Sequence record: SRR22947725_1818
DNA: 64,000 nt
Reading direction: 5' to 3' (one strand)
Shown: positions 25,907-61,429 of the stretch, in pieces
Layout: each line of letters begins with the position of its first letter
Numbering within the stretch: position 1 is the first letter of the stretch
Position numbers and translations under genes: made by a program
Notes under the pieces: model-generated
Databases searched by the model: none
Seen by the model: only the letters and a program-made list of their open reading frames with translations
What the model was told of the DNA's origin: nothing

Positions 25907-25926
25907 AAATTAGAGCGCTCTAATTT
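25907..25926. promoter_or_regulatory. LacI-type operator
   Basis: Perfect 20-bp palindrome AAATTAGAGCGCTCTAATTT with central CG, between lacI and the divergent operon. Confidence 0.88.
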
Positions 25927-25948
25927 TTCGCGACGGGGGGAGAGAAAC

Positions 25949-26863: not shown

Positions 26864-26876
26864 TAAAGGGGAGAAC

Positions 26877-27917: not shown

Positions 27918-27933
27918 TCTGATCAGCACCAGA

Positions 27934-28007
27934 CGTTCAGTACATCGATGATGTGTTGAACGCGACGTGAATGGCGGTGGGATCGGACTCGTTCCGATCC
28001 CACCGCC
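27934..28007 (+). terminator. Two tandem stem-loops after the binding-protein gene (mRNA stabiliser or attenuator)
   Basis: 13-bp stem at 27934-27962 (2 GU pairs) and perfect 15-bp stem GGCGGTGGGATCGGA/TCCGATCCCACCGCC at 27973-28007; no U-tract. Confidence 0.7.
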
Positions 28008-28085
28008 GTCGCACCACTTCCCCCCACGCACTCCGAGTATTAACGTGGCCCGAGGGTCACATGACCAGTTCTTGCAAGGCACCCT

Positions 28086-30044: not shown

Positions 30045-30089
30045 ACCCAACCTCTGACATGGCCCTCGATTCACTCACGGAGAACAACG

Positions 30090-33932: not shown

Positions 33933-33982
33933 ACTCTGGTCGAACACGAATCGAAAACGAATCGAACGAAAGAAGTCACTCA

Positions 33983-36857: not shown

Positions 36858-36872
36858 ACGGAAGACCCTGAG

Positions 36873-37787: not shown

Positions 37788-38623
37788 CCACACCGGGTCT
37801 GACCGACAGCGCGGGCCGCTTCTCGATCTTGGCGATCGACCATCGCGATTCGCTCCGCGAGTTCCTTGCTCCCGACGCTCCAGCGTCGATCGATGCCGCA
37901 TCGATCACGGATCTGAAGATCGAAGTGGTGGAAAGCCTCGCGGATCTCGCCACCGGGGTGATGCTCGAACCCGAGTACTCGATCCCGCAGGTGCTTGACG
38001 CAGGGGTTCTTCCCGCAGGGGTCGGGTTCCTGGCAGCTCTCGAAGCGCAGGGTTACCTCGATGATCCGGAGGCGGAACCAACGCGGTTGCTCGACGGGTG
38101 GTCGCCGGAATTGGCCAAAGCCTCCGGCGCGTCGTCGGCAAAGTTGCTTCTGCCGTACCGCCCCGACGGACGGCTGGTTGGCGAACAGGAGGCGTTCGCC
38201 ATCCAGCTGGTTGAGGAGTGCCACGCCCACGACTTACCGATCGCGCTCGAGCCGCTGTTCTATGGACTGGCCACCCCCGGCCGTCGATCCGAGCTGATCG
38301 TTGAGACCGCTGAGCGCTTTGCTGCCTTCGGTGCGGATCTGCTCAAGCTGCCGTTTCCTGGTTCGCCGGCAGCGTGCGAACAGGTCACCGCCGCAGTTGA
38401 GGTCCCGTGGGCGATGTTGTCGGGGGGCGGATCGTTCGATGACTTCGCCGATCAGATCGCGGTGGCCAACGCGGCGGGTTGCTCGGGGTTTATGGTAGGT
38501 CGTGCGCTGTGGGGCGAGGCCGTTCGCGCGCCAGCTGCAGATCGAGCTGATCTGTTGCAGACGCTCGTTCGGCCACGGTTCGAGCGACTCGTCGCACTCA
38601 ACAAGGAGGTTGATCATGGCTGA
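37784..38623 (+). CDS. LacD/YihT-like class I aldolase
   Basis: FSILAIDHRDSL, KLLLPYRPD, LEPL, DLLKL (Schiff-base Lys), PWAMLSGG, SGFMVGRALW; start trimmed to ATG 37784. Confidence 0.85.
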   Translation: MTTPGLTDSAGRFSILAIDHRDSLREFLAPDAPASIDAASITDLKIEVVESLADLATGVMLEPEYSIPQVLDAGVLPAGVGFLAALEAQGYLDDPEAEPTRLLDGWSPELAKASGASSAKLLLPYRPDGRLVGEQEAFAIQLVEECHAHDLPIALEPLFYGLATPGRRSELIVETAERFAAFGADLLKLPFPGSPAACEQVTAAVEVPWAMLSGGGSFDDFADQIAVANAAGCSGFMVGRALWGEAVRAPAADRADLLQTLVRPRFERLVALNKEVDHG

Positions 38624-39740
38624 TGCATGGTTCGAAGCGGCTCGATGCTCGCTCGACGAGTTCCGTGCCATCGTCGAGCGTCCAACCGATATCGATGACT
38701 ACCCGCATGCGAGCCGTAGCGAGCAGGGCGTGGTCATCTATGACGCTGCGGCGCTGAACCCGAGTAAAGAATGCCTCGGTGAGATCGCCGAGGTGCTCAG
38801 CAATGGTCCGGGCATCGTGGTGCTGGAGGGGGCAGTCGCACCTGGGACCGTCGATGCAGCAACGGTTGCGTTCGAGTCAATCATCGATGGCGAACGCGAG
38901 ACCAAGGGTGAGGTGGGTGACCACTTCGCGACGGCGGGCGACAACGATCGGGTATGGAACGCGCTCGAGAAACTGGCCATTGCCGACCCGGACGTGTTCG
39001 TCGACTACTACGCCAACGATGCGATTGCGTTGGCCTCGCTCGCGTGGCTCGGCCCCAACTATCAAATGACCTCACAGGTCAACGTTGTCAACCCGGGTGG
39101 GAAAGCGCAGCAGCCTCACCGCGATTACCACCTCGGGTTCATGGAGGACGACGTCGCCGAAGAATACCCGGCGCACATTCACCGATTGTCTCCGTTGCTC
39201 ACGCTGCAGGGCGCAGTGGCGCACTGCGACATGCCGATCGAGACGGGACCAACGATGTACATGCCGCATTCCCAGAAGTACGACGCCGGCTACGTGGCGT
39301 GGCGTCGAGATGATTTCAAGGAGTACTTCGCAGAGCACCATCGCCAGTTGCCGCTCGCAAAAGGTGATGCGGTGTTCTTCAACCCGGCCGTGTTCCACGG
39401 CGCTGGAACGAACCGAACCGCCGATGTCCGCCGCATGGCGAACCTGCTGCAGGTCAGTACCGCATTTGGTCGAGCCATGGAGGCGATCGACCGGCGGGCC
39501 ATGGTCAGAGCGATCTATCCGAGTTTGCTCGCGCGACTCGATGCCGGCGGCGATCGGGCCTGTCTCGATCGGGCCATTTCGGCTTCTGCAGAGGGATACG
39601 CTTTTCCGGGTGACCTCGACGCCGACCAACCAGTCGACGGACTGTCCTCGCCCTCCGACGCAGCGATCGTGCGTCGTGCGCTCGACGAGCGTCAGACACC
39701 TCAACAACTCGATGAACAACTGAAGGAACCAAAGCCATGA
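38616..39740 (+). CDS. Phytanoyl-CoA dioxygenase (PhyH) family Fe(II)/2-oxoglutarate oxygenase
   Basis: QQPHRDYH (HxD) and FHGAGTN (distal His), RMANLLQ; AAGGAGG RBS before ATG 38616. Confidence 0.9.
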   Translation: MADAWFEAARCSLDEFRAIVERPTDIDDYPHASRSEQGVVIYDAAALNPSKECLGEIAEVLSNGPGIVVLEGAVAPGTVDAATVAFESIIDGERETKGEVGDHFATAGDNDRVWNALEKLAIADPDVFVDYYANDAIALASLAWLGPNYQMTSQVNVVNPGGKAQQPHRDYHLGFMEDDVAEEYPAHIHRLSPLLTLQGAVAHCDMPIETGPTMYMPHSQKYDAGYVAWRRDDFKEYFAEHHRQLPLAKGDAVFFNPAVFHGAGTNRTADVRRMANLLQVSTAFGRAMEAIDRRAMVRAIYPSLLARLDAGGDRACLDRAISASAEGYAFPGDLDADQPVDGLSSPSDAAIVRRALDERQTPQQLDEQLKEPKP

Positions 39741-41221
39741 ACCGAATCAGTCACTGGATCGACGGTCGTGTCGTCGCATCGACGTCAGGCAACTCCGCTC
39801 CGGTCTATGACCCGGCGACCGGAACTCAGACCGGCGCGGTCGATCTCGCTTCGATTGCCGAAGTTGATGCCGCCGTTGCCGCGGCGGCCGCAGCGTTCCC
39901 GGCGTGGCGATCGACCTCGCTCTCGCGGCGCGCCGAGGTCCTCTTCCGTATGCGTGAGCTCGTCGACGCAAACCGCAAGGAAATCGCGATGCTGCTCACT
40001 GCTGAGCACGGCAAGGTCCTGTCCGACTCGCTCGGCGAGGTCGCGCGTGGTCTTGAGAACATCGAGTTTGCATGTGGCGTCCCGCAGCTCATCAAGGGTG
40101 ACTACTCCGAGCAGGCAGCGACTGGTGTCGACGTGTATTCGATCCGTCAACCGCTCGGCGTCGTTGCCGGCATCACGCCGTTCAACTTCCCGGCGATGGT
40201 TCCCATGTGGATGTTTGCCAATGCCCTCGCCTGCGGCAACACCTTCGTGCTCAAGCCGAGTGAGAAGGACCCCTCGGTGACGATGTTTATCGCCGAACTG
40301 CTCTCGAAGGCAGGGCTCCCGGACGGGTGCTTCAACATTGTGCAGGGTGACAAGGTGGCGGTCGACCGCTTGCTTGAACACGACGATGTCCAAGCAGTGA
40401 GCTTCGTGGGCTCGACGCCGATCGCGAAGTACATCTACGAAACCGGTACGAGCAACGGCAAGCGCGTGCAGGCGCTCGGCGGAGCGAAGAACCACATGCT
40501 GGTACTCGCTGACGCCGACATCTCGATGGCCGCCGACGCTGCGGTCAGCGCAGCCTACGGTTCGGCAGGGGAGCGCTGTATGGCAATCAGCGTCGTTCTG
40601 GCCGCCGACGGCATTGCTGACGAACTGGTTGGCGCGATCGCCGACCGCATTCCGAGAATCAAGGTCGGGAATGGAATGGAGTCAGACAGCGAGATGGGCC
40701 CACTGATCACCGCTGAGTCGCGCGATCGTGTGGTTGGCTACATCGACGGAGCACCCAACGAGGGCGCGACGGTCGTCGTCGACGGTCGCGAGAGAGTGCC
40801 TGCCGAGGGCTATTTCGTCAACCCGACGCTACTCGACAACGTGACGACCGAGATGGCGTCGTACCGCGACGAGATCTTTGGTCCGGTCCTCGGTGTGATG
40901 CGCGTGTCCGGCTTCGAAGAGGGCATCGACATCATCAACGCCAACCCGTACGCCAACGGCACGGCGATCTTCACCCGTGACGGTGGGGCCGCGCGTCAGT
41001 TCCAGTTCGACGTCCAGGTCGGTATGGTCGGCGTCAACGTGCCGGTTCCGGTGCCAGTGAGCTACTACAGCTTCGGCGGTTGGAAGGCGAGCCTGTTCGG
41101 CGACACGCACATGTACGGACCCGAGGGCATCAACTTCTACACCCGGGCCAAGGTCGTGACGAGCCGATGGCCAGACCCGGCGACCAGCTCAGTCGATCTC
41201 GGGTTCCCCGAGACTCGCTGA
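39737..41221 (+). CDS. iolA: CoA-acylating (methyl)malonate-semialdehyde dehydrogenase
   Basis: ITPFNFP, KPSEKDP, FVGSTP, GGAKNH, GERCMA, EIFGPV. Confidence 0.95.
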   Translation: MNRISHWIDGRVVASTSGNSAPVYDPATGTQTGAVDLASIAEVDAAVAAAAAAFPAWRSTSLSRRAEVLFRMRELVDANRKEIAMLLTAEHGKVLSDSLGEVARGLENIEFACGVPQLIKGDYSEQAATGVDVYSIRQPLGVVAGITPFNFPAMVPMWMFANALACGNTFVLKPSEKDPSVTMFIAELLSKAGLPDGCFNIVQGDKVAVDRLLEHDDVQAVSFVGSTPIAKYIYETGTSNGKRVQALGGAKNHMLVLADADISMAADAAVSAAYGSAGERCMAISVVLAADGIADELVGAIADRIPRIKVGNGMESDSEMGPLITAESRDRVVGYIDGAPNEGATVVVDGRERVPAEGYFVNPTLLDNVTTEMASYRDEIFGPVLGVMRVSGFEEGIDIINANPYANGTAIFTRDGGAARQFQFDVQVGMVGVNVPVPVPVSYYSFGGWKASLFGDTHMYGPEGINFYTRAKVVTSRWPDPATSSVDLGFPETR

Positions 41222-44535: not shown

Positions 44536-46320
44536 TCAGTTGATCCGACCGGCTGCCCGGGCCGCCTCTTCGGCTGCGTTCAGTTGGCCTTCCACAATCT
44601 TGATGCCATTGGCCCAAAAGTTTGGATCAGCGAGGTCGCAGCCGACGATCTTGCCGAGTTCTTCAGGGGAGCGGCTCCCTCCGGCGCGAAGGAGGTCGAG
44701 GTATGCGGGAACGAACGCATCGCCCTCTTCGATATATCGGGCGTACACCGACAACGCGAGCAGCTGACCGTACGCGTAGGCGTAGACGTAGCCAGGTGTC
44801 CCCATGAAGTGAGGGACGTAGCTCCACCAACTGCGGTACCCCTCGGTGACCTCGACCGAGTCGCCGAGCATGTCGTGTTGGCTCTGTGCCCAGAGCTCAC
44901 CGAACTGCTCCACAGACAACTCGCCGTCGTTGCGCCGCGCCGTGTGGCACGAGTCTTCGAAGCGATTCATTGCCACCTGTCGGAAGACGGTGGCAATGGA
45001 ATCTTCGAGCGTGCTGGCGAGGAGCGCGAAGCGTTCCGTCGGGTCGTCAAGGGTTGCAAGCAATCGACTGCTGGTGACGGTCTCGCCAAAGACTGATGCA
45101 GTTTCGGCAACAGTGAGCGGCGTCGACTGGTGGAAGATGCCCTGCTCGCGGGCGAGCTGAAAATGCGCTCCATGTCCAAGCTCGTGGGCGAGTGTTGCAA
45201 CGTCGCGTGACGTGCCGGTCCAATTGAGGAACACGTACGGGTGGTGCGATGGGGTGACAGGCGCAGCGAACGCACCGCCGCGCTTTCCGGGTCGGACCGG
45301 GGCGTCGATCCACGGCTCGTCAAGGAAGCGCCCGACGACGTCGGCGAGTTCGGGCGAGAACGAGTTGTAGGCGTCGCGAACGATGCTCACGCCTTCATCC
45401 CAACGAAACTCTTGCTCGGTGTCGGCCACCGACGCCATGCGGTCGTAGTCGGCGAGCTTGTCGATTCCCAGGACTTGTGCTTTGAGCCGATACCAGCGCT
45501 GGGGGAGCGAGTAGTTGCTCACCACTGCCTCAATCAGGGCGTTGACCGATTCGTCGGAGGCCTCGTTGGCGAGGTTGCGGGATGAAATCCAGGTGTTGTA
45601 GCCGCGCTGGCGATCGCTGATCGACTTGTCGAGCAGCAGTGTGTTGAACACGTAGGCCCGTGTCCGGAGTCCTGGTGCGAGCCCCGCGGTGACGCCTTCG
45701 GCCGCCTGCTGACGGATGCTGCGGTCGGGGTGGGAGAGCAGCGAGAGGGCCTCCATCAGAGAGACTCCGGTCCCGCCGTGCTCGTCGGGGACGTCGACCT
45801 CGATTGCCGAGGTCAACTCGTCAAACAGCCGAACCCAGGCAGCTCCGCCGACCTGTGCTTTGTCAGCCAGCACGGTTTCTTCGGCCTCGCTGAGCAGATG
45901 GGGCCGCTCGAGGCGGACCTGTTCGAGATGATGGCGGCAGAAGTCGAGGCGATTGTCACCGATGATGCCGGCGACATGCTCGTCATCTGCGGCTGCCCAC
46001 TCGAGCTCGAAGAAGATCAGCATCGTGTTGATCTGTGTTGCGCGCTGCTGCGAGTGCGCCATCGCTGCGCCGCGAGCAGGATCACTGGTGTCGGTACTGA
46101 ACGAGAGCATCGGGTGGTACCCCGCCCGAGCCAGCAGATCCATCACGGTCGCCATGGAGTGCATCGCGTCGGCCAGCTGGCCGGCATCGAGTGTGCCAAC
46201 CCGCCCGCGGAGGTCTGTGAGTTCGGTGGCAGACGATTCGGCAGCGTCGAACAGTTCGTCGATGGAACGACCATCGAGGATCGAGTCGATGTCCCAGGCA
46301 ACGTTGGTGACGTCAGTCAT
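44536..46320 (-). CDS. pepF: M3B oligoendopeptidase F
   Basis: WID..GKRGGAF, TLAHELGHGAH, AETASVFGE, PHF..YVYAYAYG; start trimmed to ATG 46320. Confidence 0.92.
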   Translation of the reverse strand: MTDVTNVAWDIDSILDGRSIDELFDAAESSATELTDLRGRVGTLDAGQLADAMHSMATVMDLLARAGYHPMLSFSTDTSDPARGAAMAHSQQRATQINTMLIFFELEWAAADDEHVAGIIGDNRLDFCRHHLEQVRLERPHLLSEAEETVLADKAQVGGAAWVRLFDELTSAIEVDVPDEHGGTGVSLMEALSLLSHPDRSIRQQAAEGVTAGLAPGLRTRAYVFNTLLLDKSISDRQRGYNTWISSRNLANEASDESVNALIEAVVSNYSLPQRWYRLKAQVLGIDKLADYDRMASVADTEQEFRWDEGVSIVRDAYNSFSPELADVVGRFLDEPWIDAPVRPGKRGGAFAAPVTPSHHPYVFLNWTGTSRDVATLAHELGHGAHFQLAREQGIFHQSTPLTVAETASVFGETVTSSRLLATLDDPTERFALLASTLEDSIATVFRQVAMNRFEDSCHTARRNDGELSVEQFGELWAQSQHDMLGDSVEVTEGYRSWWSYVPHFMGTPGYVYAYAYGQLLALSVYARYIEEGDAFVPAYLDLLRAGGSRSPEELGKIVGCDLADPNFWANGIKIVEGQLNAAEEAARAAGRIN

Positions 46321-47102
46321 GCGTTGTTCCTCCGAGTGAAGACCGGTTCGTCCGGGGTCGACTGTGCGGCGTCGAAGCGATATCCGTTGTTGTCGAATGC
46401 AGTGAGCGCCTTGGCGGTGGTGATCCGTTCCCTGACGATCCAACCGGCCATGGCGCCTCGTGCTTGTTTGGCGAAGAAGCTGACGATCTTGAAGTCGCCA
46501 TCACCTTTCGCGTCGAGGAAGCGTGGTGTGATGATCCGGCCGTCAAAGCGTTCGGGCTGGACGACCGAGAAATACTCGTTGGAGGCGAGGTTGACGAGCA
46601 CCTTTGCTCCCGGCGATTCGGCGAGCGCTGCATTGAGCTGGTCGGTGACTTCATCGCCCCAGTAGCTGTAGAGGTCGCCACCGTTGTCGTGCGTGAGTTT
46701 GGATCCCATCTCGAGCCGGTAGGGCTGAATGAGGTCGAGTGGCCGCAAAACGCCGTGGAGGCCGGACAGAATGCGCAGCACCTTCTGGGAATGCGTGTAG
46801 TCGCGCTCGCTGAACGAGCACGCCGCGTCGAGGCCGGTGTACGTGTCGCCGTCGAATGCCAGGACGGCAGGACGAGCGTTGTCTGGAGTGAATGGTGTCG
46901 TCCAGTCTTGGAAACGTTCGTGGTTGAGGTCCGCGAGCGATGCCGAGATTGACATCATCTTCGACAGCTGGTCCGGAGATTTCTCGGCCATCAGGCCGAC
47001 GAGTTCTTCGGAGCGGTCGATGAGGATGGGCTGGCTGTGCTTCGACGTCGGCAATGGCGACTCGAAGTCCAGCGCCTTGGCGGGTGAGACCACGATCAAC
47101 AT
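46317..47102 (-). CDS. yaaA: Peroxide stress protein YaaA
   Basis: MLIVVSPAK, LRILSGLHGVLRPLD..YRLEMG, NLASNEY, SFFAKQARG; start trimmed to ATG 47102. Confidence 0.95.
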   Translation of the reverse strand: MLIVVSPAKALDFESPLPTSKHSQPILIDRSEELVGLMAEKSPDQLSKMMSISASLADLNHERFQDWTTPFTPDNARPAVLAFDGDTYTGLDAACSFSERDYTHSQKVLRILSGLHGVLRPLDLIQPYRLEMGSKLTHDNGGDLYSYWGDEVTDQLNAALAESPGAKVLVNLASNEYFSVVQPERFDGRIITPRFLDAKGDGDFKIVSFFAKQARGAMAGWIVRERITTAKALTAFDNNGYRFDAAQSTPDEPVFTRRNNA

Positions 47103-47148
47103 GCCCTCTGGTCTATCTGAACTGGGGCGGCCGTGGGACACTCAGGTG

Positions 47149-48027
47149 ATGAGTGGACCATCAATCACGCTGATCGGGCCAGGAGCAATTGGAGCTGCGC
47201 TGGCCGCAGGCCTGGTCGAAACCGGTCATGACCCGACGCTGGTCACGCGTACCCCGTTCGACCGGCTGCGTGTCGAATGGCCCCTCGGGTCGATCGACGT
47301 CGAGGTGAACTGCGTGGCCATGGTGGAGGCCATCGGGCCAGCTGATGTGGTGATCGTCGCCACCAAGGCAACGCAGAATGCTGCTGTTCTTGAGTATGTC
47401 CGCGCCGCAGTTCGTCCCGACTCAGTCCTGCTGATCGCCCAGAACGGGGTCGATCACCTCGATCGGTTCGACATCGAGTGCGGCATCGTTCCTGCCATCG
47501 TGATGCTGCCGTCTGAGCGCACTGGGCCCGGCCAGGCCCAAGTCGGATCGCCGTCTCGGCTTGTGATCCCAGATGGACCAGCCTCAGCCACCGTGCAGTC
47601 GATCTTCGAGGGCTCCTTCATCGATGTCGAATTGACCGCAGACTGGACATCGGTGGCCTGGCTCAAGCTGATGATGAATGCGGCGGTCGGCGGAATTGGC
47701 GTCCTGACTGGACGCGGATCAGACGTCTTTCGCGACAGCGACGCCTTGAGTCTGCTGGAGGCATTGATGGAAGAAGTGGCGACGGTCGGTCGTGCCGAGG
47801 GTGCGGTGCTTCCTGATGAATTGCCGTCCCGACTCCGGCGGTATCAGGAAAAGAACGCTGGCGGGCACACCACGTCGATCGTGGTCGATCGGCTCGCCGG
47901 ACGATCCACCGAATGGCGCGAGCGCAATCAGGTTGTGGTCGACGCGGCCAGCCGACACGGCATCGACGTTCCACTCAATACGACGGTCGCGACGTTGATG
48001 CGCTTGGGCGAGCCGCGGCCAGCCTGA
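47149..48027 (+). CDS. panE: Ketopantoate reductase family protein
   Basis: IGPGAIG, ATKA, QNGV, WLKLMMN, TSIVVD; start trimmed to ATG 47149. Confidence 0.85.
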   Translation: MSGPSITLIGPGAIGAALAAGLVETGHDPTLVTRTPFDRLRVEWPLGSIDVEVNCVAMVEAIGPADVVIVATKATQNAAVLEYVRAAVRPDSVLLIAQNGVDHLDRFDIECGIVPAIVMLPSERTGPGQAQVGSPSRLVIPDGPASATVQSIFEGSFIDVELTADWTSVAWLKLMMNAAVGGIGVLTGRGSDVFRDSDALSLLEALMEEVATVGRAEGAVLPDELPSRLRRYQEKNAGGHTTSIVVDRLAGRSTEWRERNQVVVDAASRHGIDVPLNTTVATLMRLGEPRPA

Positions 48028-48067
48028 ACTCGCTCGGCTTGGCCGGTCGTTTGTTACGTTCGAGACC

Positions 48068-48946
48068 ATGAGCGTCGACAGCTACGCATTTCTGCCACGA
48101 GCATTCCGAGCGATGTACGAAGTTGCTCCGCAGCTCGATCATGAGCCCGTGTGGGCCGAATTCGACAAGCCACTTGAGGAAGCGACCATCGGTCTGCTCT
48201 CGAGCGCAGGGATCTTCGTCGAGGGTGAGCAAGCAGGTTTCGATGTCGAACGTGAGCGCCAAGAACCAACGTGGGGTGACCCAACGCTGCGAGTCATCCA
48301 ATCCGACGTCGCGCAGGCTGACATCGGCGCGACGCATCTCCACATTCGAACCGATGATCTGCTTGCAGATGTTGATGTTGCACTGCCGATCAACCGGCTC
48401 AATGAGTTGGCCGCAGAGGGCTGGATCGGCGCATCAGCAAAGGAGCACTTCTCCGTCATGGGATTCCAGGCCGAGGGTGCCGAGGTGTGGCGCACCACGA
48501 CCGGTCCGGAGATCGCGGCGCGCTGTCACGCCGCCGAGATCGATGCGCTGATCCTTGCGCCCGCTTGACCGGATTGCTGCAAGAACGTGCCCGTGTTGGC
48601 ACGGATCATCGAAGCTGCAGGTATCCCCACCGTCACCGTCACGATGATGCCGATCATGTCGGACAAGTATCGCTCGTCACGGATTCTGGGAGTCGAGTAT
48701 CCGTTCGGTCACTCCTTCGGTGCTGCCGGTGACCACGAGATGCAGGGCCGGACACTGTGGGCTGCGCTCCAACTGTTGGTCGCAGCGCCTCGGCCGGGAG
48801 GTCGCTTTGACCTCTCCGAGCAGTGGCCGGGCGACGCACGCGAGGCCTACAAGCGTTGGCAGCCTGACGAACCGAGTCCAATCGTTCTGCACAGTATGGA
48901 GATGATTCGCCAGGCCCAAGCGGCAGCAAAGCAGGCGTCGGACTGA
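48068..48946 (+). CDS. PrdB/GrdB-family selenoprotein (292 aa, Sec167 at in-frame TGA 48566-48568)
   Basis: ORFs 48068-48568 and 48587-48946 are in the same frame; readthrough gives LILAPA-U-PDCCKNVPVLARIIEAAGIPTV, matching the PrdB/GrdB UxxC site. Confidence 0.85.
48569..48607 (+). promoter_or_regulatory. Putative bacterial SECIS element
   Basis: Stem CGTGCC (48586-91)/GGCACG (48598-603) closing loop CGTGTT, 23 nt after the UGA; possible lower stem GATT/GATC. Confidence 0.6.
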
Positions 48947-49019
48947 CGCCCGGCGTGTTCTCGCCGGTTCTGACCTTCAGCCCTGTCGGATTCTGGCCAG
49001 ATGTCGAGAGAATGAGGGC

Positions 49020-49238
49020 ATGAAACTGCTCGAATTCTCCAGGGAGTCCAAGATGCGCCGCGAGGCGGTCGCCGAACAACTTCGTCGTCTCGCCGACCAG
49101 CTTGAGCGGCACAATGATCTCGAATTCAATCTTGAGGGCATCCGATACACGGTCGACGTGCCTGATCAGGTGACGCTTGAAGTCGAACTTGAGCTTGGCG
49201 ACGGTGGCAATGAACTTGAGATCGAGATCAAGTGGTGA
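49020..49238 (+). CDS. Amphi-Trp domain protein
   Basis: AVAEQLRRLADQL amphipathic helix, VPDQVTLEVELE and terminal ELEIEIKW. Confidence 0.9.
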   Translation: MKLLEFSRESKMRREAVAEQLRRLADQLERHNDLEFNLEGIRYTVDVPDQVTLEVELELGDGGNELEIEIKW

Positions 49239-49379
49239 GCGGCCCGGAGTGACTCGGTTCCCTCGAAACGGGGCCCAAGAGTGACCCTCCGTGCGCGAGG
49301 ATCCACGTAAGCCCTCCCCTCGGCCGTATGATCTCCGCAGAGCACGTCAGTAGGGCGTGTTCGAAGCGAAAGAGAACCA

Positions 49380-49577
49380 ATGCAAGGCACCGTGAAGTTT
49401 TTCAACAGCGAGAAGGGCTTCGGCTTCATCTCACGCGAGGGTGGGGAGGACGTGTTCGTCCATCACTCCAACATCTCCGGAGAGGGCTACAAGTCCCTCG
49501 ACGAGGGTCAGAGCGTCGAATTCGACATCGGTCAAGGCCGGAAGGGTGACGAAGCTCAGAACGTCCGAGCACTCTGA
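49380..49577 (+). CDS. cspA: Cold-shock protein
   Basis: [15 protein letters not shown] (RNP1), DVFVHHS (RNP2); TATGAT -10 at 49327-49332. Confidence 0.96.
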
Positions 49578-49591
49578 ACACCACGCTTTAA

Positions 49592-49634
49592 ACAGCGCCG
49601 CCGACCTCCAAGGGTCGGCGGCGTTGTGCGTTTT
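49592..49634 (+). terminator. Intrinsic terminator between convergent csp and GerMN genes
   Basis: 15-bp stem ACAGCGCCGCCGACC/GGTCGGCGGCGTTGT, 6-nt loop, then GCGTTTT. Confidence 0.85.
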
Positions 49635-49671
49635 CGGGCGCCACGCCGTCCAGCGTGTCTGAGGGGGAGCG

Positions 49672-50688
49672 TTACCGTTCGGGCAAGACGATTGGGACCT
49701 CGACAAGATTGACAGGGGCGCCGTCACGTGGGGAGTCTTCCCACATGATGATGGCGCCGGGTCCGGGTTGGTACTCCGACGGGAAGTCCGATACATCGAC
49801 CGCCACTTCGAAGATGCCCCAGGTCCCGTTGCCGCCGGTCGCTGTCGTGAAGCCCTCGGTCATGAGCTCGCCGTCGTTGTCGCCGCTCGTAATGGCGTAT
49901 CGGACTGTCGCTTCGAACGTGTTCGATTCTCCTCGAATCACCAGCGGGTTGGTGACCTCAGCGCCAGGGGACGGCTGCTCGATCATGATGCTGGCCCGAA
50001 CCTCCGCGAAACTGTCACGGGTCAGCCCTTCACCGACCACGAACCCGTGCGACAGGATTGGGTCGACCGCCGTGCCCTCGATGTGGAACTTCACTCGGTC
50101 GATTTCGTCGAACTGGGTGATGGTGAAGACGACCTGAGCCAGCCGAATCGTCTCGTCCAGCGAGCCACTCGAGCTCGCGAATTCTGTCGAGAGGTCGACG
50201 GTTGCGGTCGCTCCGTCGCGGGCGATTCCGAGCACCTTCGTGCCGGGTGGAATGCTGGTCGTCATTCTGATTGACCGCTCATCGGCGTTCAATCCGTTGA
50301 ACAGCATCTCCAGGCTGCTGCGGACGGGGACGTCGGCGGCGACCTCACGTGTCCCCGCGCCCAGACGTTCCGGGGAGCCAGCCGAAGGGTTCCGGACAGT
50401 CCAGCCCCAGTAGACGTTCGCAGAGGTCGTCGTGGCCGGCAGGGGAGTCGTCGCGGTCGCCTCGGCGGTCGTCGTGGCGGGCAGGAGAGTCGTCGCGGTC
50501 GCCTCGGTGGTCGTCGTGGTGTCAATGGTGCTGGTGCTGGTGCTGCTCTCCGGTTCCGCGCTGGGCACCGAAGGCGTCGATTCCGTCCCAACTTCGGCAG
50601 CGCCACCACACGAGACACCAAGACACCCCAGCCCGAACGCGACAGCGCCGACGATGACGAGACTCTTCTGCGGCCATCTGGCGGGCAT
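49672..50688 (-). CDS. Lipoprotein with GerMN and Gmad2 Ig-like domains
   Basis: LGVSC lipobox, Thr-rich linker, TSIPPGT..ATVDLS..RLAQVVFTITQF, GESNTFEATV..WGIF; AGGAGG RBS. Confidence 0.88.
   Translation of the reverse strand: MPARWPQKSLVIVGAVAFGLGCLGVSCGGAAEVGTESTPSVPSAEPESSTSTSTIDTTTTTEATATTLLPATTTAEATATTPLPATTTSANVYWGWTVRNPSAGSPERLGAGTREVAADVPVRSSLEMLFNGLNADERSIRMTTSIPPGTKVLGIARDGATATVDLSTEFASSSGSLDETIRLAQVVFTITQFDEIDRVKFHIEGTAVDPILSHGFVVGEGLTRDSFAEVRASIMIEQPSPGAEVTNPLVIRGESNTFEATVRYAITSGDNDGELMTEGFTTATGGNGTWGIFEVAVDVSDFPSEYQPGPGAIIMWEDSPRDGAPVNLVEVPIVLPER
50425..50519. repeat. 42-bp intragenic tandem repeat (about 2.3 copies) in the Thr-rich linker
   Basis: Copies start at 50425, 50467 and 50509; encode TTT(T/A)EATATT(L/P)LPA. 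Confidence 0.85.
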
Positions 50689-52320: not shown

Positions 52321-53007
52321 TCAGGTCAAGGGGGGAGTGGGCGCTGCTGTTTCCAGTGTGACAGCACGGTGCAAGTCGTCAATGTCGGTGAAGCGGCGCG
52401 AGCACAGGTTCGCCATGACGCCGACGAGGAGGCGGTGCTCGATGGCATGCACCGCAGTCTCGAATTCTTCGATGGAGCGAGTCGTGTCGATCGGTACTGC
52501 CTCGGTGGCGAGCAGTGGGCCGTCGTCGACACCTTCGTCGGGAACGAAGTGAACCATCACGCCCGACTCGGTTCGAGTACCCGCAACCGCTTCGTCCCAG
52601 GCACGCTCGATCGCGCGCAGCCCAGGCAACTCACCTGGCTGAGCTGGGTGCAGGTTGACCACTCGACCGGGAAACCAGCCCAAGAAGCTCATCGTGAGAA
52701 TTCGCATCCAGCCAGCCAGCACGATGAAGTCGGGATCGAACCCGGCGACCAACTCGGTGAGCCGGGCGTCGTAGTCCGGCCGGTCTTCACCCGAACGCAT
52801 GCCAATACGAACAGCGGGTACACCTGCGGCGTCGGCGCGCTGCAGTGCAAACACGTCCGCCTTGTTTGACACCACCGCAACCACCCGGCCATTGATCCGG
52901 CCGTCAGCACACGCGTCGAGGATGGCCTGCAGGTTGGATCCGTTGCCGGACACCATCACCACCAACCGCTGTTCGCGAACAGGACGTTCCGGCTGCTCGC
53001 CAATCAT
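52321..53007 (-). CDS. purN: Phosphoribosylglycinamide formyltransferase
   Basis: SGNGSNLQA, LAGWMRIL, NLHPA, GVMVH, VDDGP; ATG 53007 overlaps the purDM stop (ATGA). Confidence 0.95.
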   Translation of the reverse strand: MIGEQPERPVREQRLVVMVSGNGSNLQAILDACADGRINGRVVAVVSNKADVFALQRADAAGVPAVRIGMRSGEDRPDYDARLTELVAGFDPDFIVLAGWMRILTMSFLGWFPGRVVNLHPAQPGELPGLRAIERAWDEAVAGTRTESGVMVHFVPDEGVDDGPLLATEAVPIDTTRSIEEFETAVHAIEHRLLVGVMANLCSRRFTDIDDLHRAVTLETAAPTPPLT

Positions 53008-55208
53008 GACAACACCACTCTTTCGTTCGTCGAGCCCGGCGTTCGGTCGGTCAGTTCGCCGATGACCCACGTGGTCTCGGCGATCGATGCTTGCACTACG
53101 GCTGTCTGGTCAGGAGCGCACACGACAACCATGCCGACGCCCATGTTGAGGGTCCGGTACAACTCGACGGTGTCCATCTGCGGAGTCAGCTCGCGGACAA
53201 GCTGGAAGAGGGGTGGCACGGGCCAGGAACCCAACGTGATGTTTGCATCGACATTGTCGGGCAGCACCCGCGGCAGGTTCTCGGGGAGTCCGCCGCCCGT
53301 GATGTGGGCCAATGCCTTCACGGCGCCCGTCTCGAACGTGGGTGTCAGGAGATCGAGATACGAGCGGTGAGGTTCGAGCAGGGTCTCGCCGAGAGGACGG
53401 TCGAAGCCGTCGGGCGCCACATCCATCGGGGCCCACTCAAAGATCTTGCGCAACATCGAATAGCCATTCGTATGCGGCCCACTCGATGCAATGCCGATGA
53501 GAACGTCCCCTGCGGCAACATCGTCGCGCGGGAGCAACTCGGACCGCTCGGCAACACCGATCAGCGTGCCGGCGATATCGAACGAGCCGGGCTGATAGAC
53601 GCCTGGCATCTCGGCGGTCTCGCCCCCGAGCAATGCACACCCAGCGGCTTTGCACGCGTCAGCCATCCCGCCGACAACCTCGGCCACCAGGTCGGCGTCG
53701 AGGACGCTCGCCGCGATGTAGTCCAGAAAGAACAGCGGTCGGGCCGACTGCACCAGGACGTCGTCAATGCAGTGGTTGACGATGTCCATGCCGACGCCGC
53801 GGACCATGCCCAAGCGCGCGGCCAACTCGACCTTGGTGCCCACCCCGTCGGTGGAGGCCACCAGCACCGGCTGATCCATTGCCTGAATACCCGCAGCGGA
53901 AAACACGCCGCCGAAGCTGCCGACGCCCTTGAGGACGCCCTCACCGGGCGTGTCGTGAGTGGCTTCGACGGCGGCCTTCATCTCGTCAACGGCGCGTGTG
54001 CCCTCGTCGATGTCGACGCCGGCCGCGGCATAGCTGGCAAGGCCCGCACCGGGCGCCCGCCACGCAATGTCGCGTCGCACCTGCATGCCGTCGAACGTGA
54101 TCCTTGCCATCCGGCCGTAGGCCCGATCGCGAGCAGCGCCCAGATCGGTGCCCAGTCCGGTGACGGCCAAGACGCGACCCCCCGATGTCTTTCCATCGGC
54201 GCCGACTCCCGCATCAAAGCGATAGGTGCCCTCCACGTCACCGCGATCAATGATCGAGTGTCCAGTGCCAGGGTCGTCTGGATAGCCAGGCGATGCTGCA
54301 ACAACGGTGACCGCTGACTGGGTCGAAATTCGCAGTGGCACACTGCCCACATCGCCTTGCGTGCAGGCGAGCGCCAATTCCGCGAGGTCGGTCTCGAGGA
54401 GAGGCAACACCGTTTGCGCCTCAGGGTCGCCGAAGCGCACGTTGTACTCAATGAGGCGCGGACCGTCGGGGGTGAGCATGAGTCCCGCGAAGATCACGCC
54501 CACGTAGGGGGTGCCCTTGGCAGCGAAGTGGTCGAGTACTGGTTGTACGAACTCGGCGATCAGTTCATCACCACTGAACGGAACTGGTGCGGGCGCATAG
54601 GCGCCCATGCCGCCGGTGTTGGGTCCGGTGTCGCCCTCACCAATGCGTTTGTGATCCTGTGCCAAGGGCAGCGCAACAGCAGCCGTGCCGTCACACAGCG
54701 CGAGTAGTGAACACTCGGGCCCGCGCAACCGCTCCTCCAGCAGGAATGGTCCGGTCGACGCAGCATCGGCAATGGCCTGCCGTGTCTCGGTATCGCTGTC
54801 GGGAACTGCAACGCCCTTACCGGCAGCCAAACCATCGAGTTTGACGACGACGGGTGCATCCAAATCGGCCCACCAGGCGAGTGCGGCGTCCTCTCGGTCG
54901 TTGCCCTCAAACCGGGCAAAGGCCGGGCCGGCAATACCCAGTTCGGTTGCCAGATCGCGGGCGAATCCCTTTGAGGCTTCCAACTGCGCCAGTTCGGCTG
55001 TCGGTCCAAACGACGGGATGCCTCGCTCAGTTGCGAGATCAGTCATGCCCGCAACCAGCGCGGCTTCCGGGCCGGGAATCACCAGATCGGTGTCATTTGT
55101 GCTTGCGTCGTCGAGACCAGAGGCCAACCGAACGTCATGCCCATGCTGTCGACAGGCCCAGGCAATCGCCTGCTCGCGGCCGCCGCCGCCAATCACCAAG
55201 ATGCGCAT
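53004..55208 (-). CDS. purD-purM: Fused GAR synthetase-AIR synthetase (PurD-PurM)
   Basis: N-half GGGGRE, KLDGLAAGKGV, DHKR..GPNTGGMG, EYNVRFGDPE; C-half YAAAGVDI, STDGVGTK, GGETAEMP, HITGGG, NMGVG. Confidence 0.95.
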   Translation of the reverse strand: MRILVIGGGGREQAIAWACRQHGHDVRLASGLDDASTNDTDLVIPGPEAALVAGMTDLATERGIPSFGPTAELAQLEASKGFARDLATELGIAGPAFARFEGNDREDAALAWWADLDAPVVVKLDGLAAGKGVAVPDSDTETRQAIADAASTGPFLLEERLRGPECSLLALCDGTAAVALPLAQDHKRIGEGDTGPNTGGMGAYAPAPVPFSGDELIAEFVQPVLDHFAAKGTPYVGVIFAGLMLTPDGPRLIEYNVRFGDPEAQTVLPLLETDLAELALACTQGDVGSVPLRISTQSAVTVVAASPGYPDDPGTGHSIIDRGDVEGTYRFDAGVGADGKTSGGRVLAVTGLGTDLGAARDRAYGRMARITFDGMQVRRDIAWRAPGAGLASYAAAGVDIDEGTRAVDEMKAAVEATHDTPGEGVLKGVGSFGGVFSAAGIQAMDQPVLVASTDGVGTKVELAARLGMVRGVGMDIVNHCIDDVLVQSARPLFFLDYIAASVLDADLVAEVVGGMADACKAAGCALLGGETAEMPGVYQPGSFDIAGTLIGVAERSELLPRDDVAAGDVLIGIASSGPHTNGYSMLRKIFEWAPMDVAPDGFDRPLGETLLEPHRSYLDLLTPTFETGAVKALAHITGGGLPENLPRVLPDNVDANITLGSWPVPPLFQLVRELTPQMDTVELYRTLNMGVGMVVVCAPDQTAVVQASIAETTWVIGELTDRTPGSTNERVVLS

Positions 55209-57670: not shown

Positions 57671-58414
57671 TCAGAGTCCCTTGGCGTGTCGCACGCCGTT
57701 CTCGAACAATCGGAGACCCAAACTGGAGGGTTCACCAGCACCCCGCGTCTTCACAGCAGCACTGCGGCCGTGGTGCGGATGTTGTCGCGCCACAATGTGA
57801 TTCTCAGGGTGCGGCATGAGGCCGAGCACCACGCCGCTCGAATCGCAGACGCCAGCGATGTCGGCAACTGAGCCGTTGGGATTGGTGCTGCGATATCGCA
57901 GCGCAACCTGCCCAGCAGCGGCGAGAGAATCAGGGTCGGGGTGCACGTAACGGCCCTCGCCATGGGCGATCGGGCAGTGGATCGGGTCCTCGATTCCCGA
58001 GGTCCACACCGACTTGCTCTTGACCTCGGTCTCCAACACGACCCACCGGCAGTCGAAACGGCCCTGCGCGTTGTGTCCGAGAGCGCCGGGCAACAACTTG
58101 GTCCGCGTCAGCACCTGAAAGCCGTTGCAGATGCCGATCAGTGGGCGCCCGCGGGCGACAAAGTCGCGTAGCTCATCGCCCAACCCCATCATCAAGTCGA
58201 GCGCCAGCATGCGACCAGCGCCCAACGAATCGGCGTGGCTGAATCCTCCGGCGACGACGGCCAGTCGGTAGTCGCCCAACAGTCGCGGTCGCTCGACCAA
58301 CTCGCTCGCCAACACGATCTTTGCGTCAGCGCCTGCTAACTCAAGCGCTTGGCGTACGTCACCATCACGGTTGGTGCCAGGCCCGGCGATGACGACGGCG
58401 GGAACCTTGCTCAT
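57671..58414 (-). CDS. purQ: FGAM synthase glutaminase subunit
   Basis: PGTNRD, GGFSHAD, GICNGFQ, AHGEG, NPNGS, MPHPE. Confidence 0.96.
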   Translation of the reverse strand: MSKVPAVVIAGPGTNRDGDVRQALELAGADAKIVLASELVERPRLLGDYRLAVVAGGFSHADSLGAGRMLALDLMMGLGDELRDFVARGRPLIGICNGFQVLTRTKLLPGALGHNAQGRFDCRWVVLETEVKSKSVWTSGIEDPIHCPIAHGEGRYVHPDPDSLAAAGQVALRYRSTNPNGSVADIAGVCDSSGVVLGLMPHPENHIVARQHPHHGRSAAVKTRGAGEPSSLGLRLFENGVRHAKGL

Positions 58415-61242
58415 GACGTTGCCTGCAGTCCGTTGTGGGTGGCGTAGGCCTCGTGGTTGAAGGCATCAGCGAGATCGGAGACCAAAATTGGTTCGACTCC
58501 GGGCAACGACAACATGCCGGACTCGCTGACCTCGCCGATTTCAAGACACTCGTCGTCCATGATCCGCTTGAACGCTGCCACGCTGCGCGGCTCGATCTCG
58601 ACGACCAAGCGACCCAGCGACTCGCTGAACAGCGACGTCGATAGATCGTCGTGCGGTAACACGTCGATGGTGGCGCCGAGGCGCCCGGCCAGGCACATCT
58701 CGCCGAGGGCGACGGCGAGTCCGCCTTCGCTCACGTCGTGGCAAGCCGCGACCAGTCCGGCCTGCATGGCGGCGTGCAGATGGCGATACCGATTGGGAGC
58801 ATCAGGGTCCGGGGCTGGAGCGGCGCCGGCCACCGGGGGAGCGCCCAGCACCTTGTCGAGGTGAGATCCGGCGAATTCGGAATCAGTCGACCCCAGGAGC
58901 ATCAGCACATTGCCGGCCTCGGCCAGGTCAGGGGTAACGCACCGATTGGCGTCAGGTACATGTGCGACCGCGGTGATGACGAGCGTCGGCGGCACGGCGT
59001 GACGCTCGCCGTCGTTGCCGATGTACTCATTGTTGAGGCTGTCTTTGCCCGATACGAACGGAGCGTTGTACATGTAGGCAGCAGCGCAACATCCCTCGAC
59101 CGCTGCGGCGAGCTCGCCCAGCGTGCTGGGACGACGCGGGTCACCCCACGAGAAGTTGTCGAGCAGTGCGACCATGTCGGGGTCAGCCCCGACGGCCACC
59201 ACGTTGCGAATTGCCTCATCAACAACGGCGTAGGCCATCGCCTCAGGGTCGTGGATGCCGTACCACGGGTTGACGCCGATGCCGATCGCGATGCCGTGCT
59301 CAGCCAGCGGTTCGGCCAGGACCACACCATCGGCAGGCCCATCACCAGCTGCGCCGATCAGCGGACGCACCACGGTTGACCCCAAGATTTCGTGGTCGTA
59401 GCGATGAATCGTGCCTGCCTTGCTCGCGATGTTGGGATGCGACATCAGCGCGATCAGCGCCGCTTTCGGATCGGCCACCGTTCGGCCGACCGACGGTGAT
59501 CGATCAGGCTCGGGCAAGACGGCGTTCATCCGTCGCTGTGGACGACCGTCGTGCAAAAACGCCGTGTCGATCTCGGCCACCGGCGTGCCGCCTGATCGGA
59601 CTGTCAGAACGCCATCACCGGTGAACGCGCCGATGTCGGCTACGCCAACACCCACGCGCTTGCAGCGATTGAGAATGGCACTCACGTTCCGCGATGGCAC
59701 CGAGATGACCATGCGCTCCTGCGCCTCGCTCAGCCAGACTTCCCAGGGCTCGAGGCCAGGGTATTTCCGCGGCACGAGATCCAGTTCCACGTCGGCGCCG
59801 ATGCCCTCCGCCATCTCGCCCACCGCTGAGGACAGACCTCCGGCTCCGCAGTCGGTGATCGACGAATACAAGTCCTCCGCACCGATCAATGCGTCGATCA
59901 GCAGCTTCTCGATGATCGGATCGCCGATCTGCACACTTGCGCCTGCGACCTCGCCAGTGCTTGCATCCATTGTCGCCGACGAGAACGTCGCACCTCGAAT
60001 GCCGTCGCGGCCGGTTGCGCCGCCGAGTACCAGCACCCGATCGCCGGCATGCGGTCCTTCATGGAGGGGCCGCGCCTTCGACGTACCGATGCAGCCGGCG
60101 AAAACCAGCGGATTGGTGGTGTATGTCGGGTCGTACAAGATTGCGCCGGCCACGGTGGGCAGCCCGATCTTGTTGCCATAGTCAGCAACACCGTCGATCA
60201 CGCCCTCGCGGATTCGGCGTGGATGCAGCGAGCCGTCCGGGAGGTCGCTCAGCGGCAGGTCGGCCGGCCCGAAACACAAGATGTCGGTAATCGCGATGGG
60301 CTTGTGTGCAATACCCAGCACGTCGCGAATCACGCCGCCGACACCGGTGTTGGCTCCACCGAATGGTTCGACTGCAGATGGATGATTGTGCGTCTCGGCT
60401 TTGAGCGCAATGGTGATGCCTTTGTGAAACTCGACGATGCCGGCATTGCCGACAAAGGCAGAACGCACGAACGGTGCATCGATGGTTTCGGTACAGAGCC
60501 GCAGTTGCTGCATCAGCGGCTCGATGACCTGCTCGCCCTCGGGCCCGCCCGTCGCGTCAATCGCGGCCCGGAAGGTTTTGTGCGCGCAGTGTTCGCTCCA
60601 GGTCTGGCCCAACGTCTCCAACTCGAGATCTGTGGGATCGCGATCCAATCCAGTGAAGTGATCACGAATGACGACCATCTCCTCCGGGTCGAGGTAGAGC
60701 GCCCGCTCGACGTTGATCTCGGCCAGTCGCGTCTCGTCGGCTCCGCGAATCGGAATGATCGCGGCCGTCGAACGAATATCTTCGCCGCCCGGGTGTGCGG
60801 GTTCGATCGTGCCCCACGCCCATCGTTCGATGATCGTGTTCGCCACAACGCGCTCGATGATGTCGTCGGCCACATCGTCAGCGAGGCCCTCGTCGAAGCG
60901 AATGCGTAGACCTGTCGCGGCTGCCTCGATGTCAATACCCAAGGTGCCGCAGGCATGCCGCACGGCATCGGCGCCGCTGTCGGTGACGCCGGGTTGCAGG
61001 GTGATCTCGACCGCATGGCTCGTCGGAAGCTCCCAGTTGCCACGCTGAAGCAGCGGGTCGACGAGCACACTGTGGAGCCGATCGAGTTGTGCCGAATCGA
61101 GGTCTCCGTCGACGAACACGATGTCGGCAATGGCGACCTCGCCGATGTTGCCGAAACCAAGATCACTCGCGCCTCGCTCGATTGCCGCGGCGCGCGGATC
61201 GGCCTCGATCGGATGGAGGGTGAGACGGTGCCTGGGGGCCAC
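58411..61242 (-). CDS. purL: FGAM synthase PurL with N-terminal PurS-like domains
   Basis: QTWSEHCAHK, ETHNHPS, DCGAGG, SEAQER, GKDSL, HDVSEGG; about 160-aa N-terminal extension with DP and PGVTD PurS-like motifs. Start is GTG 61242 (TACAGT 7 nt upstream) or ATG 61266. Confidence 0.93.
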   Translation of the reverse strand: MAPRHRLTLHPIEADPRAAAIERGASDLGFGNIGEVAIADIVFVDGDLDSAQLDRLHSVLVDPLLQRGNWELPTSHAVEITLQPGVTDSGADAVRHACGTLGIDIEAAATGLRIRFDEGLADDVADDIIERVVANTIIERWAWGTIEPAHPGGEDIRSTAAIIPIRGADETRLAEINVERALYLDPEEMVVIRDHFTGLDRDPTDLELETLGQTWSEHCAHKTFRAAIDATGGPEGEQVIEPLMQQLRLCTETIDAPFVRSAFVGNAGIVEFHKGITIALKAETHNHPSAVEPFGGANTGVGGVIRDVLGIAHKPIAITDILCFGPADLPLSDLPDGSLHPRRIREGVIDGVADYGNKIGLPTVAGAILYDPTYTTNPLVFAGCIGTSKARPLHEGPHAGDRVLVLGGATGRDGIRGATFSSATMDASTGEVAGASVQIGDPIIEKLLIDALIGAEDLYSSITDCGAGGLSSAVGEMAEGIGADVELDLVPRKYPGLEPWEVWLSEAQERMVISVPSRNVSAILNRCKRVGVGVADIGAFTGDGVLTVRSGGTPVAEIDTAFLHDGRPQRRMNAVLPEPDRSPSVGRTVADPKAALIALMSHPNIASKAGTIHRYDHEILGSTVVRPLIGAAGDGPADGVVLAEPLAEHGIAIGIGVNPWYGIHDPEAMAYAVVDEAIRNVVAVGADPDMVALLDNFSWGDPRRPSTLGELAAAVEGCCAAAYMYNAPFVSGKDSLNNEYIGNDGERHAVPPTLVITAVAHVPDANRCVTPDLAEAGNVLMLLGSTDSEFAGSHLDKVLGAPPVAGAAPAPDPDAPNRYRHLHAAMQAGLVAACHDVSEGGLAVALGEMCLAGRLGATIDVLPHDDLSTSLFSESLGRLVVEIEPRSVAAFKRIMDDECLEIGEVSESGMLSLPGVEPILVSDLADAFNHEAYATHNGLQATS

Positions 61243-61429
61243 CGGCGCGACTGTAGGGAACCCCATACGACACCAGTGAAATTTGTACAAAAGGTTTGCG
61301 GGCTCGATGCCGGCGAAGAACCTTCGCACGAGCAGCCAGTTGGCCCGACACTGTCGGGGCCAAGACGAATGAGCGACACGAAAATGAGCGGAGTGCGGCG
61401 TTGGGGTCGATCACTGCGATGATGGAGCG

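Follow-up and report, generated by a model that had tools for sequence, protein, structure and literature searches.

A predicted UGA-recoded selenoprotein related to PrdB and GrdB, with a SECIS-like hairpin inside its coding sequence

PrdB is the selenoprotein subunit of D-proline reductase and is known from Clostridium sticklandii and C. difficile; in the organisms where this enzyme is known, prdA, prdB and other prd genes are clustered. GrdB, a protein of approximately 430 residues, works together with GrdA, GrdC and GrdE. Here, we analyzed a gene related to both, located at positions 48068–48946 on the plus strand of a stretch of 64,000 nucleotides from the sequence record SRR22947725_1818 (the window). 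The gene is interrupted by an in-frame UGA, and it very probably encodes a single selenoprotein of 292 residues in which this internal UGA is recoded as selenocysteine (Sec, U). A preliminary description of the locus, made from the letters of the DNA alone, had proposed one recoded product of this length, and the comparison of related loci reported below bore this out.

Genes of this kind are not new, having been catalogued as PrdB since 2005, as the accessible parts of two marine surveys indicate. The Sargasso Sea selenoproteome of that year has an entry ‘Proline reductase (PrdB)’ that comprises 42 genes and is given the motif UXXC (PMC1088965), and under pfam07355 the Global Ocean Sampling (GOS) survey of 2008 counts 235 Sec and 110 Cys forms (PMC2398784). 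In supplementary file 1 of the latter, one read carries the motif U-P-D-C-C discussed here, while two other sequences have U-P-V-C-H-Q instead (PMC2398784). To judge from those parts of the surveys, the marine ‘PrdB’ resembles the window protein in being a UxxC selenoprotein with a PF07355 domain, and it is abundant in the oxic surface ocean; the same parts group all such genes as PrdB, and do not set out a UPDCC clade, a missing PrdA or the element that directs recoding. Two reviews from 2022 and 2026, in the portions available to us, list only ‘D-proline reductase, TIGR04483, UxxC’ (PMC9312934, PMC13188914), and the latter gives the GrdB motif as UxxCxxC (PMC13188914). No paper separating or studying an orphan, PrdA-less PrdB-like clade was found in our literature search, although the supplements of newer selenoprotein databases may list the family.

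Translation across the internal UGA

The locus appears as two open reading frame (ORF) calls, 48068–48568 and 48587–48946, which lie in the same frame and are split by a single TGA at 48566–48568. The six sense codons between this TGA and the start of the second call, a GTG at 48587, are CCG GAT TGC TGC AAG AAC (P-D-C-C-K-N), an arrangement already given in the preliminary description and confirmed in the sequence; from the GTG onwards, the frame is open to the TGA at 48944–48946. When the internal TGA is read as U, a product of 292 residues results, with ...LILAPA-U-PDCCKNVPVLARIIEAAGIPTV... around the site. The features of the gene are the following:

48068–48946, plus strand: complete predicted selenoprotein gene, 292 codons from ATG at 48068 to GAC at 48943, plus a TGA stop
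48566–48568, plus strand: in-frame UGA, putative Sec U167, first residue of U-P-D-C-C; TGA in 80/80 related loci and Cys in relatives
48569–48580, plus strand: codons of P168, D169, C170 and C171; near-invariant residues with synonymous codon variation
48584–48603, plus strand: putative selenocysteine insertion sequence (SECIS) element, invariant block AACGUGCCCGUGYUGGCRCG, within codons N173–R179
48944–48946, plus strand: true stop of the frame, also TGA

Conservation of the UGA was analyzed in related loci retrieved from genomes that each represent a different species, which yielded 241 loci; the best 80 of these were used throughout. They belong to Actinomycetota (Acidimicrobiia), Chloroflexota, Dormiibacterota, Myxococcota, Pseudomonadota and Acidobacteriota. 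At the position of residue 167, TGA was present in 80/80 loci, at protein identities ranging from 97% to 50%, and the tblastn match ran in frame through the site, extending in most loci from residue 1 to residues 273–292. Further, the start M-x-V/I-D-S was common to the window product and full-length Cys homologs.

In a single sequence, a lone in-frame stop looks like a fresh nonsense mutation, as expected if a PrdB-like gene had been inactivated. However, the retention of TGA at this codon in all 80 species-level genomes excludes a nonsense mutation, both halves are conserved at the protein level, and neither further stops nor frameshifts were present. The pseudogene reading is thus refuted, and we give it a negligible probability.

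A protein search returned 173 relatives. Among the 120 listed, 115 covered just the first 51–57% of the query; these N-terminal pieces were mostly exactly 166 residues long, with identities from 98% down to 54%, which fits gene calls that end at the UGA. The same list contained five full-length relatives of 279–320 residues, with the site A-P-x-C-P-D/G-C-C, and Cys occupied the Sec column in six full-length close relatives. The alignment of homologs proposed in the preliminary description showed Cys at the TGA position in 59 of the 75 other relatives fetched that span the site; the remainder had Gly (6), Ser (6), Trp (2), Asp (1) or Glu (1). Taken together, a stop retained at a single site by 80 lineages, conserved in-frame flanks and relatives with Cys constitute the classical signature of Sec.

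Three database proteins (P0126, P0143 and P0186) carried Gly or Trp at the Sec column, in the contexts N-G-P-D-C-C and A-W-P-D-G-C. The simplest reading of such entries is gene calling with genetic code 25 or 4, so that the TGA was translated.

Codon usage around the site was examined in a codon alignment of 78 genes, namely that of the window and those of 77 loci, after L019, L047 and L054 had been dropped because of their partial coverage. Directly downstream of the UGA, P168, D169 and C170 were each present in 78/78 genes and C171 in 77/78, while four synonymous codons were in use for P168 and two each for D169, C170 and C171. Since the residues are conserved and the codons vary, selection appears to act on the protein, in this frame, immediately 3′ of the UGA. 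The second Cys of U-P-D-C-C, which had been regarded as an oddity in the preliminary description, turned out instead to be a hallmark of the subfamily.

These data also bear on the possibility of two genes, in which translation would stop at the UGA at 48566 and a second protein of 119 residues would start from the GTG at 48587. This is what standard ORF calling yields, and the 115 N-terminal pieces among the 120 listed database matches agree with it. Nevertheless, the stretch of six codons that separates the UGA from the GTG includes P-D-C-C, which is invariant although its codons vary synonymously, and is hence translated in frame, the natural Cys forms of 279–320 residues are single proteins, and the predicted structure described below forms one domain across the junction. 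In addition, a genuine terminating UGA would drift among the stop codons rather than stay the same in 80/80 lineages. We therefore regard two separate products as extremely improbable.

A hairpin overlapping codons 173–179

Bacterial SECIS elements have been modelled, in the consensus known from bSECISearch, as hairpins with a loop of 3–9 nt, a stem of 4–16 bp and a minimum free energy (MFE) of ≤ −7.5 kcal/mol (PMC13188914, Fig. 2 legend). The same legend also calls for a G among the first two nucleotides of the loop, in most cases with G or U next to it, and for a distance of 16–37 nt from the UGA to the loop (PMC13188914).

Downstream of the UGA of the window gene, a 6-bp stem can be formed between 48586–48591 and 48598–48603, with the apical loop CGUGUU at 48592–48597. 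The preliminary description had reported this stem and loop 23 nt past the UGA, which is correct for the loop; the stem itself begins 17 nt past the UGA. The 23-nt hairpin alone had an MFE of −10.4 kcal/mol, and only 2 of 200 shuffles were as stable. With its 6-nt loop, 6-bp stem, 23-nt spacing and this MFE, the predicted hairpin at 48584–48603 agrees with all four constraints of the published model as given in the part of the review cited above, and positions 2–3 of its loop are G then U. A degenerate 38-nt pattern running from the TGA through the hairpin occurred once in the window and gave no match in 100 shuffles, so that the predicted TGA-plus-hairpin arrangement at 48566–48603 is far beyond chance.

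Constraint was also apparent at synonymous sites. Conserved degenerate columns were defined as those where at least 69 of the 78 sequences share one degenerate amino acid, and 83 columns qualified. Only four of them used a single codon, and these are consecutive: N173 (AAC), V174 (GTG), P175 (CCC) and V176 (GTG), each in 78/78 genes. All of the remaining 79 varied in codon, and every other four-fold degenerate column had a codon entropy of at least 1.0 bit. The next two codons are restricted as well, L177 being YTG in every gene and A178 being GCA in 55 and GCG in 19, both of which pair with U (74/78), and GCC in 4; GCA is a minority codon at other Ala columns.

At the level of the nucleotide sequence, the 20-nt pattern AACGTGCCCGTGYTGGCRCG was found once, at the same offset, in 74/80 loci, and RNAalifold picked the identical six pairs. 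Bacterial SECIS elements usually differ widely from one another, according to that review (PMC13188914), whereas here one 20-nt sequence is essentially unchanged across six phyla. This can be attributed to the same bases encoding a conserved peptide: seven codons specify N-V-P-V-L-A-R and would at the same time form the RNA hairpin (dual coding), and as a result the synonymous sites are frozen across phyla. The SECIS-like hairpin of the preliminary description is thereby upheld on two counts, the published model and the frozen synonymous sites. At the level of comparative sequence analysis, these results show site-specific recoding of the UGA, directed by a predicted SECIS that overlaps codons 173–179.

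The UGA might also be read through or recoded without Sec, either by a near-cognate Trp or Cys tRNA or by local reassignment of the codon. The few database proteins with G or W at the Sec column would be in keeping with this, as would the lack of visible Sec machinery in the 64-kb window. By contrast, Cys, the partner in the signature Sec/Cys pair, occupies this column in 59/75 homologs, and a hairpin of the SECIS model with frozen synonymous sites comes right after the UGA. Moreover, TGA is the stop of 41/47 Pfam-supported genes in the window and of the 48068–48946 gene itself; UGA is thus a normal stop in this DNA, and recoding at 48566–48568 is site-specific. Insertion of an amino acid other than Sec consequently seems very improbable.

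Relationship to PrdB and GrdB and gene neighbourhood

The read-through product matched the PrdB model TIGR04483 with E = 5.5e-33 and 114.4 bits, over profile positions 14–220 of 238. In a BLASTP comparison with P0185, a bona fide PrdB of the Cys form that scores 453 bits on TIGR04483, it was 28% identical over 230 residues (E = 8e-33), and U167-x-x-C170 aligned with the active-site C-x-x-C of that protein. The proposed homology to PrdB and GrdB, with Sec on the active-site Cys column, was thus substantiated. GrdB-type models gave 30–39 bits and covered the C-terminal part only. Further, GRDB (PF07355) was matched at E ≤ 0.001 by 52/70 members of an alignment of relatives (A3), and a precomputed PF07355 match was present on many database relatives.

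A quick IQ-TREE analysis was performed on alignment A3, whose 70 rows comprise the window protein, six Cys forms, 35 of the 80 loci and 28 distant relatives. All 42 [U/C]PDCC rows fell on one side of a branch with a Shimodaira–Hasegawa-like approximate likelihood ratio test (SH-aLRT) value of 99, and P0185 fell outside. The predicted product is accordingly a distant paralogue of PrdB and of the C-terminal half of GrdB, belonging to a separate [U/C]PDCC clade. Within the tree, the Cys forms P0007, P0009, P0015 and P0123 nested in the Sec clade beside L078, and the Cys form P0011 adjoined L068, which suggests at least two independent, secondary Sec-to-Cys replacements in the subfamily. One locus binned as ‘uncultured Gammaproteobacteria’ (L009, contig CAXMSE010000068.1) had its copy inside the Acidimicrobiales clade, as sister to L005; this placement points to mis-binning or a recent transfer.

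The AlphaFold2 model of the product is a single compact alpha/beta domain, with a predicted local distance difference test (pLDDT) score of 96.2 and a predicted template modelling (pTM) score of 0.93. U167 is positioned between a strand (160–164) and a helix (168–183), and this location at the transition from strand to helix start is one we take to be typical of CxxC redox centres. In the ESM Atlas, the Cys homolog P0123 retrieved GRDB-family clusters only.

Compared with PrdB (TIGR04483), the window protein shares the size class and the fold family, homology over nearly the whole profile and Sec in a UxxC motif at the same column. It differs in its motif U-P-D-C-C, followed by N-V-P-V-L-A-R, in a conserved C-terminal extension of approximately 50 residues, and in having neither prdA nor other prd genes nearby, in the window or among the scanned immediate neighbours of the 80 loci. 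The hosts of the [U/C]PDCC forms are different too: instead of Clostridia that ferment amino acids, they include Acidimicrobiia, Chloroflexota and Dormiibacterota, among others. With regard to GrdB, GrdF and GrdH (PF07355, TIGR01917/TIGR01918), homology is weak and confined to the C-terminal 120–190 residues with the Sec motif (E = 1e-7 to 4e-10), and the chemistry of the glycine, sarcosine and betaine reductase selenoproteins B is likewise of Sec plus Cys. The window protein lacks the N-terminal half of GrdB, scores 34 bits on TIGR01918 against a cutoff of 65.45, and has no grdA or grdE neighbour.

The orphan context asserted in the preliminary description was corroborated. No member of the PrdA/GrdE, GrdA, thioredoxin or thioredoxin-reductase families was found among the 68 ORFs of the window, and none of the PrdA/GrdE, GrdA and thioredoxin-system families occurred among 138 ORFs directly adjoining the gene at the 80 loci or among 19 sequences that represent clusters of recurrent neighbours. 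The set of 138 omits eight very long helicase-nuclease ORFs, which are represented among the 19.

These comparisons bear on the proposal that the gene encodes a true subunit B of D-proline, glycine or a related reductase, with its pyruvoyl and electron-transfer partners elsewhere in the genome; the product would then still be a selenoprotein, although it would not work as an enzyme on its own. PrdB is the best-scoring curated family for it, its Sec falls in the active-site column of true PrdB, and published surveys, in the parts cited above, class such marine genes as ‘Proline reductase PrdB’. The genome view is moreover limited to 64 kb, and a PrdA-like partner may sit elsewhere. On the other hand, 114 bits is far below the equivalog cutoff of 300, the clade stands apart from the bona fide PrdB row with an SH-aLRT of 99, the product has about 50 extra conserved C-terminal residues, and the partner families were absent from the window and from the neighbourhoods sampled across 80 genomes of six phyla, although prdB is clustered with prdA in the organisms in which D-proline reductase is known. 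We consider this proposal unlikely.

The window was 97.4% identical to, and collinear with, L001, a contig of an Ilumatobacter sp. metagenome-assembled genome (MAG), over 13.8 kb, and its host is therefore an Ilumatobacter-like member of Acidimicrobiia. The genes around the predicted selenoprotein gene are as follows, yaaA being located two genes upstream, as described previously:

46317–47141, minus strand: yaaA, a peroxide-stress gene, two genes upstream
ending at 48027, with a start probably near 47146: PanE/ApbA-like reductase gene, directly upstream of the selenoprotein gene
49020–49238: ORF with an Amphi-Trp domain, downstream of the selenoprotein gene

A scan for promoters and terminators over 46000–49700 found no promoter-like site. 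At 48034–48046 (plus strand), within the 40 nt that separate the PanE-like gene from the selenoprotein gene, there was a weak hairpin that resembles a terminator and is followed by a T-rich tail.

Neighbourhoods were compared by all-against-all clustering of the ORFs within 6 kb in 81 regions, and this revealed no partner gene shared across clades. The neighbours in the window were common only to L001 and L002, the two closest Ilumatobacter loci, GntR regulators adjoined the gene in three Ilumatobacter loci, and PanE-like neighbours were likewise limited to a clade. In approximately ten loci from Dormiibacterota and ‘Chloroflexi CF’ soil MAGs, a PhzF-like gene lay upstream and, in most, a convergent MsrB gene (SelR/MsrB domain) downstream (L035, L042, L045, L048, L052, L058, L063, L070, L074 and L076), which hints weakly at a link to oxidative stress or redox processes. 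About ten Anaerolineae and Tepidiformales loci instead had a gene for an FAD-linked oxidase (FAD_binding_4 plus FAD-oxidase_C, GlcD-like) upstream, on the same strand at a distance of ~0.9–1.3 kb (L028, L029, L032, L036, L046, L050, L055, L057, L059 and L075). Because neighbours recur only within clades, the gene behaves as a stand-alone unit.

The window was also scanned for pairs of ORFs divided by a single TGA, which produced 238 raw candidates; the filter on GC content at third codon positions (GC3) did not discriminate among them and missed the 48068–48946 gene. Two minus-strand ORFs of 321 and 253 aa without a Pfam match lie in one frame at 18168–19913 and are split by a TGA at 18950. 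A plus-strand ORF of 625 aa at 18030–19907, with a C-terminal PEP-utilizers domain as its only Pfam match, overlaps this pair. Genes of purine biosynthesis appear to be fused in two minus-strand ORFs, one of 734 aa at 53004–55208 with GARS (PurD) and AIRS (PurM) domains, the other of 972 aa at 58411–61329 with PurS, FGAR-AT linker and AIRS (PurL) domains. Finally, a long cluster at ~23700–41200 resembles inositol or sugar catabolism and includes three GFO/IDH/MocA oxidoreductases, a LacI regulator, a sugar ATP-binding cassette (ABC) transporter, a PfkB kinase, a Cgl0159-like protein, a thiamine pyrophosphate (TPP) enzyme, KduI/IolB, a DeoC-type aldolase, a PhyH dioxygenase and an aldehyde dehydrogenase.

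Proposed mechanism and meaning of the family

Several results weigh against a SECIS-directed selenoprotein of the PrdB/GrdB superfamily, or at least qualify it. With regard to the hairpin, stretches of 42–81 nt were not more stable than their shuffled versions (z = +0.43, +0.02 and −0.31), so that single-sequence folding alone is not convincing for the element. The GCC Ala codon introduces a U-C mismatch into the stem in 5/81 sequences, and one sequence has ATG in the hairpin, with A replacing the C/U of the loop. There was no compensatory covariation, five of the seven tested pairs being invariant and one varying on one side (U-A or U-G), with none varying on both; the scarcity of any variation in the hairpin accounts for this. 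The predicted structure thus draws its support from invariant synonymous sites and from agreement with the published model, and not from covariation. A search of the whole window with Rfam gave no family at gathering scores, and at E ≤ 10 the segment 48500–48700 gave just a chance snoRNA match (E = 8.8); bacterial SECIS elements are poorly covered in Rfam.

As for the protein, the score of 114.4 bits misses the TIGR04483 equivalog cutoff, the TIGR01918 match is restricted to residues 98–214, and PF07355 reached 21.4 bits over residues 32–164 only, narrowly missing its gathering cutoff of 22. Among solved structures, no sequence matched the read-through product, Foldseek returned no match at E ≤ 0.001 for the AlphaFold2 model, and the best hit of a profile search was a designed P-loop protein at a non-significant E = 0.0045. 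Neither selA, selB, selD nor a gene for tRNA-Sec was found in the 64-kb window, and no tRNA-Sec gene was present in the flanks of L001–L060. The comparative sample, in turn, consists of the best 80 of the 241 related genome loci.

In bacteria, Sec insertion depends on a complex of SelB, GTP and Sec-tRNA(Sec), which attaches to the apical portion of the hairpin when the ribosome arrives at the UGA. On the recoding model, the hairpin 17 nt 3′ of the UGA at 48566–48568 would act during translation as such a SECIS: once bound by SelB-GTP-Sec-tRNA(Sec), it would allow Sec to be inserted without termination, and the ribosome would proceed through P-D-C-C-K-N... to the stop at 48944. In the resulting enzyme, Sec167 may serve as the nucleophile, and Cys170 and/or Cys171, the latter being the extra Cys, may resolve the adduct of Sec167 to give a selenenylsulfide, which a general cellular dithiol reductant encoded elsewhere could reduce again. 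The enzyme would work without a pyruvoyl partner of the PrdA/GrdE type, and its substrate need not be D-proline. A stand-alone redox function, as suggested in the preliminary description, would agree with the data. This functional part of the model, that is, a Sec167 nucleophile, resolution by Cys and independence from a pyruvoyl partner, is in our view about equally likely to be right or wrong.

For the [U/C]PDCC clade as a whole, we lean slightly towards a group of self-sufficient selenoenzymes distinct from D-proline reductase, found mostly in aerobic non-fermenters of at least six phyla, which would catalyze a reductive reaction without a pyruvoyl partner and carry a dual-coding SECIS. Its 20 nt would be fixed across phyla because they also encode the conserved N-V-P-V-L-A-R of the helix beside the active site. 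As the curated PrdB cutoff was failed and no PrdB partner genes lie nearby, the name ‘D-proline reductase’ should not be transferred to these proteins.

No new category of biology is involved, given that UGA recoding, the PrdB/GrdB superfamily and its abundance in the ocean are all established. What the analysis isolates is a well-defined orphan clade, which published lists name “proline reductase” though the partner genes are lacking from its surroundings. The gene is mis-annotated almost everywhere, and its active-site half is absent from protein catalogues, in which 115 of the 120 entries listed here end at the UGA. On this reading, selenocysteine would be in use in the Ilumatobacter lineage as well as in many members of Chloroflexota, Dormiibacterota and Myxococcota. 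The aspects of most interest are a widespread orphan selenoenzyme and a SECIS frozen across phyla by dual coding, the latter being a simple target for read-through reporters. If dual coding by the SECIS is true, the family would offer an unusually clean natural system for the mutual constraint of SelB recognition and protein sequence.

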